From contig CAWJAC010000006.1 in the NCBI GenBank assembly GCA_963840745.1, positions 97,947 to 161,946 of the forward strand: a DNA stretch of 64,000 bases. The letters are read 5' to 3'. The position numbers and the translations under genes are program-made. Source of the stretch: Candidatus Zambryskiibacteriota bacterium (lineage in GTDB: Bacteria; Patescibacteriota; Minisyncoccia; Phycocordibacterales; WO2-35-19). The notes beneath the pieces were generated by a model. It saw nothing but the letters and a program-made list of their open reading frames with translations. It did no database searches and was not told where the DNA came from. This document shows positions 9,890 through 63,273 of the stretch, piece after piece (within the stretch, counting starts at the first letter, position 1; each line of letters opens with the position of its first letter).

Positions 9890-10967
9890 ATGCAAAACAT
9901 TGCTTTAATAATATTGGCAGTAGGGCTGATTTTGGCTATTTTTGCTTTGCTCAGAAAAAAAGAAGAGCCCAAAAATAACGATACTGGTCTTAAACTCATC
10001 CTCCAGCAAATAAACGAACTCAATCGCACCGTGGATGCTAAAATCGGCGAAAATGCTCGCCAGACTAACGAAACAATAAAAACCCAGCTCGGCGAGTCCG
10101 CTTCGCTTATTCGCGAAGTGACAAAAGGTTTGACCAAATTGGACGAGACAAACCGCCAGGTGGTTTCTTTTGCCGACCAGTTGCAAAATCTGCAGGACAT
10201 TTTGAAAAATCCTAAACAGCGGGGAATTTTGGGCGAGTATTATTTGGAGACATTGCTCAAAAATGTTTTGCCGCCGGGGCAGTATCAGATGCAATATGCT
10301 TTCCCAAACGGCGAAATTGTGGACGCGGTGGTTTTCGTCAAAGACAAAATCATTCCGATTGATTCCAAATTTTCGCTGGAAAACTACAATCGTTTGACCG
10401 AAGCCAAAGACCCGGCGGAAAAAGAACGATTGGAAAAAGCTTTTTGTCAACGATTTGAAAGATGCGCATCACAGAAACGTCAAAATACATTCGGCCAGCC
10501 GAAAGGCACAATGGATTTCGCTTTCATGTTCATTCCGCACGAAGCGATTTATTATGATTTGCTCATAAATAAAATCGGGCGGAGTGACCGAGGATACCGA
10601 AAATCTGATCCAGCGCGCCGCCGGCAAGTATAAAGTCATCATCGTCTCGCCGACTTCTTTTTTGGCTTATCTGCAGACCGTTTTCCAGGGGCTGAAAGCC
10701 ATGCAGATAGAAGAAACGGCCAAAGATATCATCAAGCGCGTCGGTGAGCTCGGCGATCATTTGAAAAAATACGAAACATATCACAGCAAACTGGGGGCAT
10801 CTCTGGAAACGGTGGTCAATCATTTCAACGCTTCAAGCAAGGAGTTTAAAAAGGTGGATAAGGATGTAATGAGGATAACAGGTACGTCAGTTGAAATAGA
10901 AACGCCGCTTATTGAAAAGCCGGAGACGGAGAGTAGAAAGAGGGAAATAAAATTGTTCCTGCGTTAG
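9890..10967 (+). pseudogene. rmuC: DNA recombination protein RmuC, interrupted by about 4 frameshifts
   Basis: RmuC-like sequence is spread over three frames. Shifts occur at T5 10441-10445, the A-run 10458-10460, gaaagg about 10500 and the A-run 10571-10574. The conserved MDFAFMFIPHEAIYYDLL and KYKVIIVSPTSF blocks are present. Confidence 0.75.
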
Positions 10968-11006
10968 GTCGTAAGGATAAGGCTCTTGGAACAACATTAT
11001 TTCCCT
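10941..11006 (+). repeat. Conserved-loop hairpin, copy A (3' end of rmuC)
   Basis: 19-nt arms agggaaataaaattgttcc / ggaacaacattatttccct (17 of 19 paired). Loop tgcgttaggtcgtaaggataaggctctt. The rmuC stop TAG lies in the loop. Confidence 0.8.
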
Positions 11007-11050
11007 GTTTTCTTGCAGAAAATACAAAAATCCTGTAAAGTGGTATGACT

Positions 11051-11508
11051 ATGGCAGAAATAAGAGAAATCAAAACAACTCCACAGAGGCTGGGCCAAAG
11101 ACCCCTAAAACCAAGGGTACTTCAAAAACCACGAAGCTTAAGGCTGCTAAGAAAGCTCCTAGCGGCGGAGCTTTTGCCATAATTGAGACAGGTGGCAAGC
11201 AATACAGAGTGACTGTGGGGGATCTTATTAAAATTGAGAAAATGAAAGCCGACTCCGCCAAAGGCTCCGTCGAGCCGAAGAAAGGGGATTCGGTAATTTT
11301 TGATAAAGTTCTCTTGATTGACAATGGCATTGGTTCCACTGATATCGGCACGCCGTACATTGAAGGAGCCAAGGTTTCAGGTACTCTGGTTGAGATTGGC
11401 CGCAACGCCAAAGTTATGGTCATCAAATACAAACAAAAAAGCCGTTACTTCAAGCGCAACGGCCATCGTCAGCCATATTTCAAAGTTAAGATTGATAAGA
11501 TTGGATAA
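11051..11508 (+). CDS. rplU: Ribosomal protein L21 with a Lys-rich N-terminal extension; start uncertain
   Basis: AFAIIETGGKQYRV...KRNGHRQPYFKVKI. The ATG at 11051 is in a different frame from the conserved core, so there is either a frameshift or an unidentified start. Confidence 0.8.
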
Positions 11509-11540
11509 CAAAAAACCGAAATCAATCGGTTTTTTGTTAT
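11505..11540. terminator. Bidirectional intrinsic terminator
   Basis: ataacaaaaaaccga / tcggttttttgttat, a perfect 15-bp stem between convergent rplU and the VKOR gene. Confidence 0.7.
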
Positions 11541-12112
11541 CCAAAAAAGAAATCCCTAAAGTGAAAAAAGATTAAAAAAATAATTAAGAGATACCAAATG
11601 ATCAGAACTTGTATGTGGTTGCGGGAAACAAAATGAAAAAATGAGTCAAATTTTTTGGAAAAATGCCCTTCCCTAAAATTCCAAACGGTAGTGTAAAGGA
11701 AAAGAGGCCACGTGACTGCCCAAGTGATCATGCAATAAAGACAAAGAGAGCCGATGCGGTAAACGCTTTCAAAGAAGAACCACATGACGAAAACCATTGC
11801 TGCCAAAGTACCCAAATTAACCAGTAGCCAAAGCGGTTTTTTGGCTCGGCCTCCGGAAAATAGCATCACTCCGATAGCGAATAGCATCGCAAAAGCGGTA
11901 ATGCCCAAAAGGGAATTAGGGAAGCCGAAAATTTGGCTTTGCCAAGTAGAGGCAACTGAGGTGCAGCTTATGAAAGGGTTAATGTTGCAGGGCAGATTTA
12001 CGTTAGGATTTTTTATGAATTCTATGGTGTCTACCGTTAGCACGAAAGAAGCCAAGAGGCCTATAATACTGCCAATCATCAAAATATAGTGGTAAGTTTT
12101 TTGTATACTCAT
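11537..12112 (-). CDS. Vitamin K epoxide reductase (VKOR) family membrane protein
   Basis: Multi-TM protein with a loop Cys pair (CNINPFISC) and a CxxC (CLYC) in a TM helix. Confidence 0.8.
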   Translation of the reverse strand: MSIQKTYHYILMIGSIIGLLASFVLTVDTIEFIKNPNVNLPCNINPFISCTSVASTWQSQIFGFPNSLLGITAFAMLFAIGVMLFSGGRAKKPLWLLVNLGTLAAMVFVMWFFFESVYRIGSLCLYCMITWAVTWPLFLYTTVWNFREGHFSKKFDSFFHFVSRNHIQVLIIWYLLIIFLIFFHFRDFFFG

Positions 12113-12770: not shown

Positions 12771-14149
12771 TTAAAACTCTCTAAACTCACTTTCGGCGCC
12801 GGTGAACTGGGCTTTTTCGAGCGGCTGGAATGTGACTCTCTTTTCATTAAAAAAGAGCTCGACTTTGCCAGTAGCGCCATTGCGATGTTTTTCAATCAAA
12901 ATTTCGGCTATATTTGTTTTCTCGGACTCCTCGGTATTTTTGGATTTATCTTCGCGGTGTATAAACATAACCAGGTCAGCGTCTTGCTCGATGGAACCGG
13001 AATCGCGGAGGTCAGAGAGTTTGGGTTTGCCGCCACGCTGTTCGACGGCGCGGGAAAGTTGTGAGAGGGCCAGCACCGGCACCTCCAATTCTCTTGCGAG
13101 ATTTTTTAAGGAGCGGGAAATTTCAGTCACTTGGTTGACCATTGAATCATAATTTTTGGTTGTCATCATGAGTTGTAAGTAATCTACCACAATGAGTCCC
13201 AAACCTTTTTCATTTTTGAGGCGTCTGGCGACTGAACGCATTTTCAAAATATTATTGCCCGGCTGATCATCTATGAAAATGGGCGCCTTTGAAAGAGTGT
13301 CCAAAGATTGCCTAATTGCGGCAAAATCATCTTCCCTGATGCCTTTGCCTGTACGCATTTTCCATGCATCAACGTTTGATTGGGCCGCCAGCATACGGTC
13401 TACCAATTGTTGGGAGCTCATTTCAAGCGAAAATATACCAACCGGAGTATTGTGATAAATGGCTGTTTGGCGGGCAATATCTAGGGCAAGAGCTGTCTTT
13501 CCGACCGAGGGTCTGGCCGCCAAAATTATGAGATCTGATTTTTGCAATCCGGAAAGTTTCTCATCCAATTCTTTGAAGCCGGTCGGCACACCTCGCAATC
13601 CGTCTCCGGAATTATGCAATCTATCGAGACGTTCCCATGCTTCGGCCAGTTCGTCTTTCATTTCCACGAACTTGTGAATGCTGGAAATGTTTGTGACATC
13701 GTAAATTTTCTTTTGAGCTTGATCCAAAAGCTCTTCTAGTTCTGCCGCTTCGTCATAACCGAGGAGGAAATATAATCAGCGGCGCCAATCAAATTTCTGG
13801 CTATGTGTTTTTTTTGAATTATCTGGGCGTAGTAAGTGGCATTGGCGGCTGAAGGCACGCAATTGACCAACTCGCCCAAATAACTGTTGCCTCCTATTTC
13901 ATCCAAAATATTTTTTTCTTTTAATCTGGCAGAGACAGTGAGCAAATCTGTCGGATTGCGCTTTGAAAAAAGTTCAAGCATTGTCTCAAATATCAGGCGA
14001 TGCTTTTCTGAATAAAAAGAAGTCGGATTAGCCAAGTCTGTAATTTCAAACATCACTTCTGGGCGGAGCATCACTGAACCAAGCAGAGCTTTCTCAGCCT
14101 CGGTATTATTCGGTGGAATTCTTATGTGAGTTTTTTTCTGAATGTCCAT
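12771..14149 (-). CDS. dnaB: Replicative DNA helicase DnaB (one apparent frameshift near 13758-13772)
   Basis: N-terminal domain ORF 13736-14149 and RecA-like ORF 12771-13727 (ARPSVGKTALAL Walker A) abut. A 1-nt shift restores ...ADYISSLGYDEAAELEELLDQAQKK... Confidence 0.9.
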
Positions 14150-21833: not shown

Positions 21834-22327
21834 ATGAAGCTTAAAATTGCTATTGCTTGTTTGGTAGTGTTGGTTGTTTTGGTGGGGACAGTGCCTTCTT
21901 TTAGGGCGCCGGTTCTTGATTCTCTCTCGGCTATTTATGCTTCAGTCTTGTGGGTCTGACAAATCAAAACAGGGCAGCGGCCAATGTCTCGCAGCTGACC
22001 GTCAGTCCGATTCTAGAAAAAGCCGCCCAAATGAAAGCTGATGATATGGCAGCCAAAGGTTACTTTGCTCACAATACCCCGGAGGGCAAAACCCCTTGGT
22101 ATTGGTTTGACCAAGCTGGTTATAAATACATTTATGCTGGAGAAAATTTAGCAGTTAATTTTGAAAACAGCGCTGATGTGGAAACCGCTTGGATGAATTC
22201 CCCCGGCCATTTCCTCAATATTATGAATCCCAAATTTACTGAAATAGGCATCGCCACATCAACTGGTATGTATAAAGGTAGGCAAGCGGTATTTGTCGTC
22301 CAGATGTTTGGCGCACCGAACAAATAA
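21834..22327 (+). CDS. CAP/SCP/PR-1 (YkwD-like) domain protein with an N-terminal TM helix (apparent frameshift near 21948-21953)
   Basis: LTNQNRAAANV...GHFLNIMNPKFTEIGIA is a CAP domain. The TM-encoding ATG at 21834 is in another frame. Confidence 0.7.
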
Positions 22328-22408
22328 GTAAAAACCAAAATAGCTACTGTTCCTGCGTTAGGTCATAAAGATAAGGCTCTTGGAACAGACTATTTTGGTT
22401 TTTACTTA
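22327..22408 (+). repeat. Conserved-loop hairpin, copy B (3' end of the CAP-domain gene)
   Basis: Arms aagtaaaaaccaaaatagctactgttcc / ggaacagactattttggtttttactt (about 25 bp with a 2-nt bulge). Loop tgcgttaggtcataaagataaggctctt. Confidence 0.85.
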
Positions 22409-22436: not shown

Positions 22437-23351
22437 CTAAAGCTTTACGGCGTCGCCTGCGGCTATATTATTTTGATGATAAAGACCATCAGTGCAATCG
22501 CCGGCTGCCCATATTCCATCCAAGCTTGTTCTCTGATTTTTGTGATCAATTTTTATGCGTTTGAATTCGTCCATTTCAACTAAGCCTTCAGCAAAATCGG
22601 TTGAGGGATTGTGGCCGATTTCTACAAATATGCCGTCTGTTTCAATTTCAACATTGTCTACAAAAGGCGCAGTTCTCTGATAAACTAGAGATTTTACAAA
22701 GTTACCTGCCCTGAGCTTGTCGAATGGGTCGCCTTTTATTTCAACTGGTGTGGCATTTGTCACAGCTTTCATTTTTGGATTGGCTAGCACTTTTTCAACC
22801 GTCACAGGATCGGCGCGGAATTCGCCTCGGTTTATCAAGGTTACGCTTTTACAATAGGCGAGAAGTTGGGCCGCCGATTCAAAACCGGCATTACCGCCTC
22901 CTATAACAACTACATTTTTGTCTGCAAAAAACGGTCCGTCGCAGGAAGCACAGTAAGTAATGCCTTTGCCTTCAAATTCTTTGGCCCCCGGGTATTTCCA
23001 ATTTTTTCCTGGAACTCCAGTGGCCATTAATACTGTTTTGGTTTTATAGTATCTTTATTTGTAGTGACAACAAATCCATTATCTATCTTTTGCTACTTTT
23101 TTCACTTTTTCGCCCTCTTTTATATCAACAAAACTATCGGCATATTTTTTAACATGTTCTTTAAATTTTTTAGCGAGATCGACACCTGAAATAGCTGGCG
23201 TGCCTATCCAGTTTTGAATTTCGTTTGATTCAACCGACTGACCGCCAAAACTTCCGGCAATAAGAAGTGTCTTTATTTGCTTTCTGGCCGCATAAACTCC
23301 TGCCGCCGCTCCCGCCGGCCCACCTCCTATAATAATTAAATCGTAGTTCAT
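22437..23351 (-). CDS. trxB: Thioredoxin-disulfide reductase (two apparent frameshifts, about 23034-23046 and 23076-23087)
   Basis: IIGGGPAGAAAG FAD motif, redox CASC, GGGNAGFE NADPH motif. The missing segment DNGFVVTTNKDTIK / TKTVLMATG is readable in the other frames. Confidence 0.85.
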
Positions 23352-23365
23352 AAAATTATTGTATC

Positions 23366-23440
23366 AAAAAAACAAATAATATCATTTCAAGAGCCTTATC
23401 CTTATGACCTAACGCAGAAATGATATTATTTGTTTTTTTT
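23366..23440 (-). repeat. Conserved-loop hairpin, copy C (3' end of ftsZ, minus strand)
   Basis: The minus strand reads aaaaaaaacaaataatatcatttc-tgcgttaggtcataaggataaggctctt-gaaatgatattatttgttttttt. The stem is about 23 bp and perfect. Confidence 0.85.
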
Positions 23441-23446
23441 GATAAG

Positions 23447-24603
23447 TTATTTAAGTTTTGATCTTCTCAAAAATGCAGGCACGGCGCCCCATTCATCATC
23501 GTCATCTATAATATTTTGTTTTTTCTCTTCCGGTTCTTCTTCTTTTTTATCTGATTTTTCATTTCTAAATACGGAATTAAATATTTTACCTTTGCCGTTT
23601 TCTGTCTCTCCTGCGCCTTTGTCTCCAAACAAATTGCTTTTCGTATAATTTTCTGGAAAACCGGAAGCGATAACGGTAATTTTTATCTCACCCTTTTTGA
23701 GTTTATCATCGCGGACGGTACCGAATATTATTTTAGCGTTTGGATCTACCGATTCGGTAATAAATTTGGCGGCATCGTGTATTTCAAACATTGTCAGATC
23801 ATCGCCTCCGGCAATTGAAAAGAGTACTCCTTTGGCGCCATTTATGGAAACTTCAAGAAGTGGGGAATTGATGGCCAATTTAGCCGCTTCCTCAGCTCGT
23901 TTCTCACCGCTAGCTCTGCCTATGCCCATCAAAGCTCCGCCGGCGCTTTCCATGATGGCCCGCACATCGGCAAAATCTATATTTATAATTCCGGGCATGG
24001 TGATGAGGTCGGAGATGCCTTCCACAGCTTGTTTCAATATGTCATCGCACATGGCAAAAGCGTTTTTGGCAGAGGTTTCTTTATCAATAGTAGCAAGCAG
24101 TCTATCATTTGGAATAACGATTAAAGCATCAACTGACTGCCGAAGCTCTTCAAGCCCGCTTCAGCCAGCCGCATTTTTTGCTGGCCTTCAAAAGAGAAAG
24201 GTTTAGTTACGACTCCAACTGTCAAAGCGCCTAATTCTTTAGCGGTACGAGCGATAACGGGACCGGCTCCGGTGCCGGTGCCTCCCCCGGATCCATAAGC
24301 AATGAAGACCATATCGGCTCCTTTGATAGCTTCCTGTATTTCTTCTTTGGTTTCTTCTACCGCTCGTTTACCAAGTTCCGGATTCATGCCGGTACCCAAA
24401 CCTTTAGTTAAATTTTTTCCTATGTGTATTTTCTTTTTGGCTTCTGAATGATGCAGGTCTTGAGCATCTGTGTTTACTGCAATAAATTCCACTCCTCTCA
24501 CTTTGGAGTTAATCATATGATTAACGGCATTTTTGCCGGAACCTCCGACGCCTATAACCTTTATTCTAGCAAAGACTTCTACTTCTGGTTTTATTTGAGG
24601 CAT
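23447..24603 (-). CDS. ftsZ: Cell division GTPase FtsZ (one apparent frameshift near 24146-24160)
   Basis: [11 protein letters not shown] and [11 protein letters not shown] tubulin signatures. A 1-nt shift restores ...[24 protein letters not shown]... Confidence 0.9.
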
Positions 24604-62501: not shown

Positions 62502-63200
62502 ATGAAAGAAAAAGAACTTGACGGATTTGAAAAACTGATCGAAATAGAATTTAAAGATAAAGATTTGCTTAAGCAGGCGTTTACTCACCGCTCTTTTTTG
62601 AATGAACACAAAGCTCTCAAGAGCAAGCACAATGAGCGGCTTGAATTTTTAGGAGATGCGGTGCTCGAACTTGTCATCACTCATTATTTATACGAAAAAT
62701 ATCCGGATAAAAATGAAGGCGATTTGACCTCTATCCGGAGCGCCTTGGTCAACGCCACCACCTGCGCCGAGGTGGCAAAAAAATTGGAAGTCAATGATTA
62801 TCTGCTCCTTTCAAAAGGCGAGGCTAAAGATACGGGGCGAGCTAGGCAATATATTTTGGCTAACGCTTTAGAAGCGATTATCGGAGCCATTTATGTTGAT
62901 TTGGGATACGAGTCGGCGCAGGATTTTATAATGAAGCATATCGCTCCCATGACCTCTCAGATAGTCAAAGAACAACTTTGGGTGGATGCCAAAAGCAAGT
63001 TCCAAGAAAAAGCTCAAGATATAGAAGGAGTCACTCCATCATACAAAACCATAAAAGAAGTCGGCCCCGATCATGATAAAAAATTTACAGTTGCTGTTTT
63101 TCTCGGTGACATTTTGGTCTCCGAAGGCGAAGGAGAATCCAAACAGGACGCCGAACAATCAGCCGCCCGCAACGCTCTCAAAGAAAAGGGATGGGATTAA
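62502..63200 (+). CDS. rnc: Ribonuclease III
   Basis: NERLEFLGDAVLEL signature and a C-terminal dsRBD. Confidence 0.95.
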   Translation: MKEKELDGFEKLIEIEFKDKDLLKQAFTHRSFLNEHKALKSKHNERLEFLGDAVLELVITHYLYEKYPDKNEGDLTSIRSALVNATTCAEVAKKLEVNDYLLLSKGEAKDTGRARQYILANALEAIIGAIYVDLGYESAQDFIMKHIAPMTSQIVKEQLWVDAKSKFQEKAQDIEGVTPSYKTIKEVGPDHDKKFTVAVFLGDILVSEGEGESKQDAEQSAARNALKEKGWD

Positions 63201-63273
63201 AAATTGCAAAAACATTGTTTCTACGTTAAGTCATAAGGATAAGGCTCTTGAAACAATGTTTTTGCAATTTTTT
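63199..63273 (+). repeat. Conserved-loop hairpin, copy D (3' end of rnc)
   Basis: Perfect 23-bp arms aaaaattgcaaaaacattgtttc / gaaacaatgtttttgcaattttt. Loop tacgttaagtcataaggataaggctctt. Confidence 0.9.

Follow-up and report, generated by a model that had tools for sequence, protein, structure and literature searches.

A putative terminator-type hairpin family with a conserved tip in Paceibacteria, and its copy at the end of a frame-shifted rmuC gene

Background

In the interspersed repeats REP/BIME, Correia/NEMIS, RUP, BOX and ERIC the conserved part is found in the arms, either the REP stem or terminal inverted repeats. The attC sites of integrons have conserved boxes at the base of the stem and a variable tip. 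The hairpins found at the replicon origins of HUH nucleases have a conserved nonanucleotide in the loop, on variable stems. Here we study a hairpin which lies between the genes rmuC and rplU (ribosomal protein L21) in a stretch of 64,000 nt from a Candidatus Zambryskiibacteriota bacterium (contig CAWJAC010000006.1, positions 97,947–161,946), which we will call the window. This hairpin, copy A, probably belongs to a dispersed family of terminator-type hairpins specific to the class Paceibacteria; the reading frame of rmuC runs on into it, probably by loss of the normal stop codon.

The genomes of Patescibacteria are tiny, their intergenic spacers are very short, and to our knowledge almost no regulatory RNA has been characterised in these bacteria.

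The hairpin at the end of rmuC

Copy A is found on the forward strand in positions 10941–11006. Direct reading of the sequence agrees with the initial annotation of this DNA: two arms of 19 nt, AGGGAAATAAAATTGTTCC (10941–10959) and GGAACAACATTATTTCCCT (10988–11006), pair at 17 of their 19 positions and enclose a loop of 28 nt (10960–10987). The loop, TGCGTTAGGTCGTAAGGATAAGGCTCTT, is identical to the 28-mer which had been quoted. The two mismatches in the arms are A10951/A10996 and A10952/C10995. Pairing continues outward to about 10936 on the left and 11011 on the right; with this extension an inverted-repeat search gives arms of 23 nt with 87% complementarity. Three parts can be distinguished in the loop: a conserved 5' strand, TGCGTTAGGTC (10960–10970), a tip GTAAG (10971–10975) and a conserved 3' strand, GATAAGGCTCTT (10976–10987). 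The stem is clamped by GC pairs (AGGG/CCCT) and is followed by a T-rich tract, GTTTTCTT (11007–11014), which may have the role of a terminator U-tract.

The folding energy of copy A is −30.4 kcal/mol, with z = −4.1 in comparison with shuffled sequences. The 28-mer is found four times in the window with up to three mismatches, at 10960, 22354 and 63222 on the forward strand and at 23389 on the reverse strand, when 0.00 occurrences are expected from 100 shuffles. Copy A is more than a chance hairpin. The other three copies, with z between −7.1 and −8.3, are also found between genes. Copy B (22325–22408, forward strand, loop 22354–22381) is placed between a CAP-domain gene and the convergent gene trxB. 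Copy C (23366–23439, reverse strand, loop 23389–23416) lies between ftsZ and trxB, and copy D (63199–63272, forward strand, loop 63222–63249) is found directly after rnc, the gene of RNase III; both have a perfect stem of 23 bp. The rnc gene before copy D (region 62502–63272) has a Pfam match with E = 9.5e-41. Stems of 23–29 bp fit the size of RNase III substrates, so that a processing or autoregulatory link is conceivable.

Copies in other genomes

When one genome per species was scanned with a pattern we obtained 13 loci, 12 of them hairpins in seven metagenome-assembled genomes (MAGs) of Patescibacteria, labelled as Nomurabacteria, Zambryskibacteria, Paceibacteria or "Patescibacteria group". 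The scan of metagenomes added 15 loci, 14 of them with a hairpin copy, which correspond to 10 distinct sequences and four duplicates; the pattern used there, with 12 N, matched only variants with a loop of 29 nt and the count is limited to these. Five further copies are present inside the metagenome loci: L023a and L029a were found with a looser pattern, L025b, L010b and L017b (plus its duplicate in L022) with a covariance model, R1. Altogether we have over 30 copies in other Patescibacteria, of the class Paceibacteria, besides the four in the 64-kb window. Family copies score 60–79 bits with model R1, and no other sequence of the window exceeds 19 bits. Viral contigs gave no matches in two scans.

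In several loci copies come in pairs within 0.2–2 kb. In four of them the pair falls within 0.2–0.7 kb: L017 5878–6136 (the same as L022), L029 380–905, L025 1017–1758 and L023 2245–2928. The HIT-family gene of L029 has a copy on each side.

No family of Rfam 15 reaches its threshold for the hairpin; in the window only four tRNAs do. The best Rfam matches at copies A and D are microRNA-precursor models with 30–32 bits, against thresholds of 70–90. These sub-threshold matches are generic long-hairpin models of microRNA precursors and similar chance matches. In the literature we have found nothing relevant on this sequence or on repeats of hairpin or terminator type in the Candidate Phyla Radiation.

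Several candidates were discarded. Locus L002, the thirteenth of the genome scan, in a MAG of Gammaproteobacteria (JAUIGR010000042.1, 6282–6326), matches at 31 of 35 nt with 34.8 bits, has no stem and falls within an open reading frame (ORF) of 327 amino acids (..AAGHKDKALEYGKD..). Tens of such matches are expected in a collection of 596 Gb, so that we treat it as chance; the match is nevertheless striking. It encodes ..ITAAGHKDKALEYGKD.., which may be read as a nuclease-like motif. Locus L021 was rejected as a copy, as it has no stem. By inspection we discarded a dif/Xer-type site (11+6+11 = 28 nt): its arms do not form inverted repeats with one another, and it is multi-copy. A tip motif of Shine-Dalgarno-like or CsrA type (GGA) was also discarded, since the middle GGA is missing in several copies (AAGAT variants). 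As for the 3' region of 16S RNA (GUCGUAA) and the RNAs of the signal recognition particle and of RNase P, the Rfam searches show no similarity to them.

Variable stems and a conserved tip

We aligned 28 sequences (alignment A1). Their stems have 20–29 bp, they are AT-rich and their sequence differs from copy to copy with conservation of the pairing: 91.9% of the stem cells are paired, as compared with 78.1% in shuffles and 33–53% with slid partners. Nine stem pairs have changes on both sides. The pair beside the closing C-G is found as UA, CG, GC and AU. The loop behaves in the opposite way: its 5' strand is nearly invariant in the 28 aligned copies and its 3' strand is invariant. The latter varies at G35, G36 or T41 in three copies which were found only by the covariance model. 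Between the two strands there is a hypervariable tip of 5 or 6 nt, with the variants RTAAG, ATAAA, ATTTAA, ACAAAG, ATCAAG, ATATAG, ATTGAG, ATGGAG, AGCAAG and AGTTAA. Covariation in the stem and conservation of the loop indicate, as judged from the alignment, that the hairpin is kept under selection.

The arms have only their inner 4–14 bp in common, and only within sub-families; it is the centre which is the conserved part. The sub-families share an inner stem of 12–14 bp, either AAAAACATTGTTTC or ATCAAACYTTRC, the latter with a conserved imperfection, placed on different outer stems.

One stem position, five pairs below the loop (columns 8/46 of A1), is unpaired in five copies. By eye we find there an A.C mismatch in L004, L017, L018 and L025, which would be a G.U wobble in the opposite strand. 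An assignment of the strand by counting G-U and A-C pairs in the stems was uninformative (18 vs 26).

The reading frame of rmuC

The rmuC gene of the window is split into two ORFs of the forward strand. The first one (9890–10633, 247 amino acids as called, including out-of-frame stretches) covers positions 2–187 of the Pfam profile PF02646 (RmuC) with E = 3.6e-34. The second one (10584–10967, 127 amino acids, ending in ...KPETESRKREIKLFLR*) covers positions 186–272. Thus the profile is covered, divided over the two ORFs, and no single frame matches it in full length. A three-frame translation gives the frame order 2, 0, 1, 2, 0, with four changes between about 10439 and 10582, and orthologues searched with tblastn give two high-scoring segment pairs in different frames. 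A pairwise alignment with the closest orthologous DNA, of L015, whose protein is 92% identical, locates four net insertions of +1 at about 10439, 10461, 10496–10502 and 10578–10582. All four are gains of a single base adjoining purine runs, within about 150 nt. This cluster of shifts (10439–10582), next to clean genes, suggests either a local patch of low quality or a real decay of rmuC.

The second ORF reads ...ESRKREIKLFLR, passes through the left arm of copy A and stops on the TAG at 10965–10967 (loop positions 6–8), just as the initial annotation had described. Its description of the left arm as coding sequence of rmuC is right for the frame as it stands; the gene, in two ORFs with four frame changes, is not an intact rmuC. 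The loop has stop codons in two of its three frames, the TAG and also TAA at loop positions 13–15 and 19–21, the first of which falls in the hypervariable tip; a run-on which ends in the loop is thus a likely and unremarkable outcome. We have ruled out that the loop is a stop cassette for all three frames, as frame 2 reads ALGRKDKAL and is open.

With the frame-repaired RmuC as a query we obtained 120 orthologues among the matches listed, 78–92% identical and mostly 345–348 amino acids long. All 120 end at ...KP[ED] plus 3–5 residues (...KP[ED]x[ED]x), which corresponds to ...KPETES in the window, about 10 residues before the loop TAG. The tail RKREIKLFLR found in the window, ten codons in positions 10935–10964, is drawn from the foot of the hairpin, the left arm and the first five bases of the loop. 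None of the 120 listed orthologues has a similar tail, nor the same C-terminus and stop, and the tail is therefore derived from the element, an origin which the initial annotation had suggested for the last codons. Orthologues free of the hairpin but with the same last residues and stop, which would have refuted that annotation, were not found among them. Alignments of the orthologous proteins by tblastn stop at position 10931 of the window.

What has happened to the normal stop may be judged when the gene is compared with its relatives codon by codon: the window has AGA (10935–10937) where five syntenic orthologues have TGA, TAA or TAG. There is a TAG at the foot of the hairpin (10934–10936), out of frame, which after removal of the hairpin aligns with the TAG stop of one of the relatives, L031. 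It therefore looks like the ancestral stop of rmuC. The run-on is best read as a stop loss, either real or due to a sequencing error: one base could have been lost before the TAG at 10934–10936, or a TGA changed into AGA. Translation as read would then continue for 10 codons up to the next in-frame stop, which by chance is the TAG of the loop. We consider it probable that the run-on is incidental. That the loop supplies the stop of rmuC is literally true, biologically trivial and may be an artefact of assembly. If the run-on were truly translated, the ribosomes would melt the left arm, which should weaken the hairpin; such weakening is known for terminators which lie too near a stop codon (as in the abstract of PMC4824070).

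The rmuC–rplU junction in related genomes

Five syntenic loci were compared (L014, L015, L031, L032 and L033), with the gene order tgt-truB-yqeY-rmuC-rplU-VKOR-recR-dnaB. The conserved-loop hairpin is missing from all five over 55 kb. Their junctions between rmuC and rplU are of three kinds. L015 and L033 have ordinary terminator hairpins with a GC core. A small additional ORF is found in L014 and L032. The junction of L031 is limited to 36 nt, where the rplU promoter (TTGCA-N17-TAAAGT) comes right after the stop. In the window a similar promoter-like sequence, TTGCAG-N17-TAAAGT (11013–11041, forward strand), is found immediately 3' of the hairpin, 1 nt past the end of pairing, and the hairpin lies in the gap of 70 nt between the position of the rmuC stop and this promoter. 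When the hairpin is deleted in silico, the window ..gTAGa|GTTTTCTTGCA matches L031 ..aTAGc GTTTCTTGCA. From this comparison the hairpin looks like a gain of about 69 nt between the ancestral rmuC stop and the rplU promoter.

The sequence TTGCA-N17-TAAAGT is kept upstream of rplU in L014, L015, L031 and L033, where the intergenic DNA cannot otherwise be aligned. The GC-core terminator of L015 (1375–1415) starts with GATAAGGCggTCTT, similar to the 3' strand of the loop, GATAAGGCTCTT; this could be a remnant or simply fortuitous.

These data bear on the proposal of the initial annotation that the element had inserted in the coding 3' end of rmuC, or that the gene end had evolved together with it, so that the TAG of the loop would be a legitimate stop. 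The frame as it stands does end on this TAG, with a tail that is missing in the orthologues, and the absence of the element at this site in the five relatives means that it has arrived, or has been replaced, in the window. However the element begins at the position of the orthologous stop and not before it. No residues of RmuC are missing, since the alignment reaches ...KPETE, and an out-of-frame TAG is present where the stop is expected. Furthermore rmuC has four other frame shifts, and no other credible gene among about 32 copies ends inside the element. We find this proposal very improbable; stop loss accounts for the run-on in a simpler way.

A different question is whether the stop has been lost in the organism or only in its sequence. 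If the run-on were purely an artefact of assembly, the organism would have an intact rmuC ending in ...KPETES*, with its TAG at the foot of the hairpin. This is a sub-case of stop loss and does not contradict it. Genes which are essential or nearly so are broken in the window. The gene dnaB is split into 13736–14149 and 12771–13727, ftsZ into 24121–24603 and 23447–24052, and trxB (22437–23351) has two frame shifts. In rplU (11045/11051–11508, forward strand, with the Pfam L21 domain on 11209–11505) a frame shift is found in the N-terminal extension, between MAEIREIK... and ...PKTPKTK...AFAIIETGGKQY; its orthologues have 143–159 amino acids. The broken state of these four genes suggests an assembly prone to indels. 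The four events in rmuC are also single-base gains by purine runs, and a single one-base error would be enough to restore the TAG at 10934–10936. On the other hand this restoration requires a missing base, whereas the four events in rmuC are extra bases, and many neighbours are intact: a gene of 916 amino acids, tgt, truB, yqeY, recR and an M48 peptidase. We give even chances to an artefact of this kind. Either the assembly of the window contains indel errors, or some genes of the organism are decaying, or both are the case; the gene ends of the window are not trustworthy, and its gene calls require a repair of the frames. A run-on by stop loss into a hairpin, in a frame-shifted gene of such an assembly, is ordinary, and is mainly a warning about the gene ends of the window.

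Placement and possible role

In most of the sense copies the stop of the upstream gene falls between −19 and +5 nt relative to the foot of the hairpin, and 25 of 29 copies adjoin the 3' end of one gene at least. Among the upstream genes are groEL, ftsZ, pgk, rnc and those of small basic proteins, probably ribosomal. Each of the four copies in the window has a T-run after a segment of its stem. On the left the outer arms carry a run of A and on the right a run of T, a trait shared with the ordinary bidirectional terminators of this genome. An example of the latter is found between rplU and the convergent VKOR gene (11501–11544), a perfect bidirectional hairpin of 19 bp, TTGGATAACAAAAAACCGA / TCGGTTTTTTGTTATCCAA, with a loop of 6 nt.

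The hairpins thus have a stable RNA structure, a U-rich tract 3' of the stem and a position at the end of transcription units, as intrinsic terminators do; their loop has 28–29 nt instead of the usual 3–8 nt. Copy A is the only one, among about 32, into whose loop a credible gene reads: the ORFs which enter the loop in L004, L029 and L030 are short and antisense to real genes (a HIT-family gene, an xerC-like gene), so that we consider them spurious. We favour, with some reserve, the interpretation of the family as terminator repeats. Such hairpins would delimit transcription units within very tight intergenic spacers. In copy A the GC-clamped stem (AGGG/CCCU) with its tract GUUUUCUU most likely ends the transcription unit of rmuC, one nucleotide before the rplU promoter.

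As for the conserved tip, it would most likely serve either as a surface recognised by a factor in trans or as the core through which the repeat is spread. It may act at the RNA level, in 3'-end processing or stability, perhaps related to RNase III given the stems of 23–29 bp, or at the DNA level in the spread of the repeat. The apical module is formed by the nearly invariant strands 5'-UGCGUUAGGUC and GAUAAGGCUCUU-3', closed by a possible helix of 3 bp (GUC/GAU) plus the tip of 5–6 nt. An irregular extension of the helix fits the two strands, with G14-C39, G16-C37, U17.G36, U18.G35, tandem purine mismatches, GUC/GAU and the variable tip, but it is only a proposal.

Several points weigh against this interpretation of the family and of copy A. 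A consensus terminator scan called none of these sites, and a loop of 28 nt is far above the canonical intrinsic size; termination at the hairpins is deduced from their sequence and placement. The orientation of the loop is mixed, with about 15 sense and 6 antisense copies, 4 between convergent genes and 4 in promoter regions of divergent genes; of these last four, one is found between a HIT-family gene and recJ. This argues against a role of the tip strictly as sense-strand RNA. We looked for covariation in the loop in A1 and found none; two copies break a proposed loop pair and a C22 variant breaks the GUC/GAU helix. The G-U counts of the stems favour neither strand. With regard to stop loss, the frame shifts of rmuC are clustered in 150 nt beside an intact neighbour of 916 amino acids, and either real pseudogenisation or assembly error may be their origin.

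The same observations bear on a further alternative, in which the apical module would be an RNA switch inside the terminator, responsive to a ligand or a protein, which tunes read-through into genes such as rplU, trxB and smc. Conserved strands like those of an internal loop are indeed found inside the terminator stem, and an aptamer embedded in a terminator has a precedent in the HMP-PP riboswitch (abstract of PMC6478431). However the genes downstream have no relation to each other, some of the copies are antisense or between convergent genes, and the loop, which lacks the covariation looked for, gave no alternative pairing either. Such a switch is very improbable.

The evolution of the family has two aspects. 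One orthologous site has retained the hairpin in three genomes: the upstream proteins are 61–70% identical and the last 150 coding nt about 68–75%, when the hairpin core of 52 nt is 83–87% identical, its two loop strands are identical and the outer stems have diverged by compensated changes. The other aspect is dispersal. The rmuC–rplU site is filled only in the window as compared with the five syntenic relatives, and the 52-nt cores of L005 and L029a are identical down to their C.A mismatch, with different flanking genes. From both signals the family appears to behave like other bacterial interspersed stem-loop repeats, with copies which spread and are then kept as hairpins. Retention at an orthologous site weakens a purely selfish role, and the mixed orientation weakens a function purely as sense RNA.

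Could the hairpins be primarily mobile DNA? They would then be small non-autonomous palindromes, which are recognised as single strands of DNA or have entered existing terminators at their apex, with the loop conserved as the site of a transposase or HUH-type nuclease and not for a function as RNA. This would be consistent with the presence/absence polymorphism at the rmuC–rplU site, the identical core of L005 and L029a with different neighbours, and the sub-family inner stems (AAAAACATTGTTTC...) on outer stems which resemble ordinary terminator cores. The mixed orientation and the stems, near-perfect DNA palindromes with few G-T pairs, point in the same direction. Yet the single comparison of a filled and an empty site (the window and L031) shows no target-site duplication or defined termini. 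No RAYT or other transposase came up beside the element, although no search was aimed at such linkage, and the retention across proteins with 61–70% identity, together with the lack of viral matches, also speaks against it. A primarily mobile nature is in our opinion unlikely. Being mobile would not prevent the hairpins from acting as terminators.

The terminator-repeat interpretation leaves room for a more specific tip. It is a serious possibility, somewhat short of an even chance, that the apical module is an undescribed structured motif of nucleic acid conserved in the class Paceibacteria and recognised by a trans-acting factor of its own (for example an RNA-binding protein or a cofactor of RNase which acts on 3' ends, or else a nuclease or transposase of single-stranded DNA). 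If this is true, it would be a new family of functional motifs and not a passive terminator repeat. Something must recognise the element, to judge from the twenty-odd tip nucleotides which are identical across species with 60–70% identical proteins. Model R1 and alignment A1 offer a handle for transcript boundaries in these uncultured bacteria, and possibly for a new RNA- or DNA-binding partner. The hairpin family has a modest wider interest; little follows from the rmuC finding as stated.

Comparison with known systems

Bidirectional intrinsic (Rho-independent) terminators are similar to our element in having a stable hairpin right after the stop, with runs of A and of T in the 5' and the 3' arm respectively, and in being followed by the next promoter. 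The element also occupies the site where relatives have classical GC-core terminators. It differs by its AT-rich stem of 20–29 bp and its conserved loop of 28–29 nt in place of a short arbitrary one, and by the recurrence of the same tip at many genes in many species.

Repeats of the REP/BIME type share with it the multiple copies, the extragenic and palindromic nature, the location mostly at gene 3' ends, the stems with a length adequate for RNase III and the presence of the same core in different contexts. As required for REP or MITE sequences, the copies are many and dispersed (4 in 64 kb). However a conserved arm or terminal inverted repeat is not found: in our element conservation is found in the centre and not in the arms.

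The attC sites are also imperfect hairpins right after a stop, which may overlap the gene end and keep their structure more than their stem sequence. In the element the pattern of conservation is reversed. The R/L boxes at the base, the variable tip and the cassette array with intI which define attC are not found here; there is no cassette array or integron integrase, and the neighbours are housekeeping genes.

The origin hairpins of HUH replicons come close in another sense, as the element shows a conserved loop on a variable stem, the logic expected for recognition of a single strand. They differ in that the element is present in tens of chromosomal copies at gene ends, with no matches in viral contigs, no linked Rep or relaxase gene and no nick motif identified. 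Taken together, these likenesses and differences describe a family which is possibly a new variant among the known interspersed stem-loop repeats associated with terminators.

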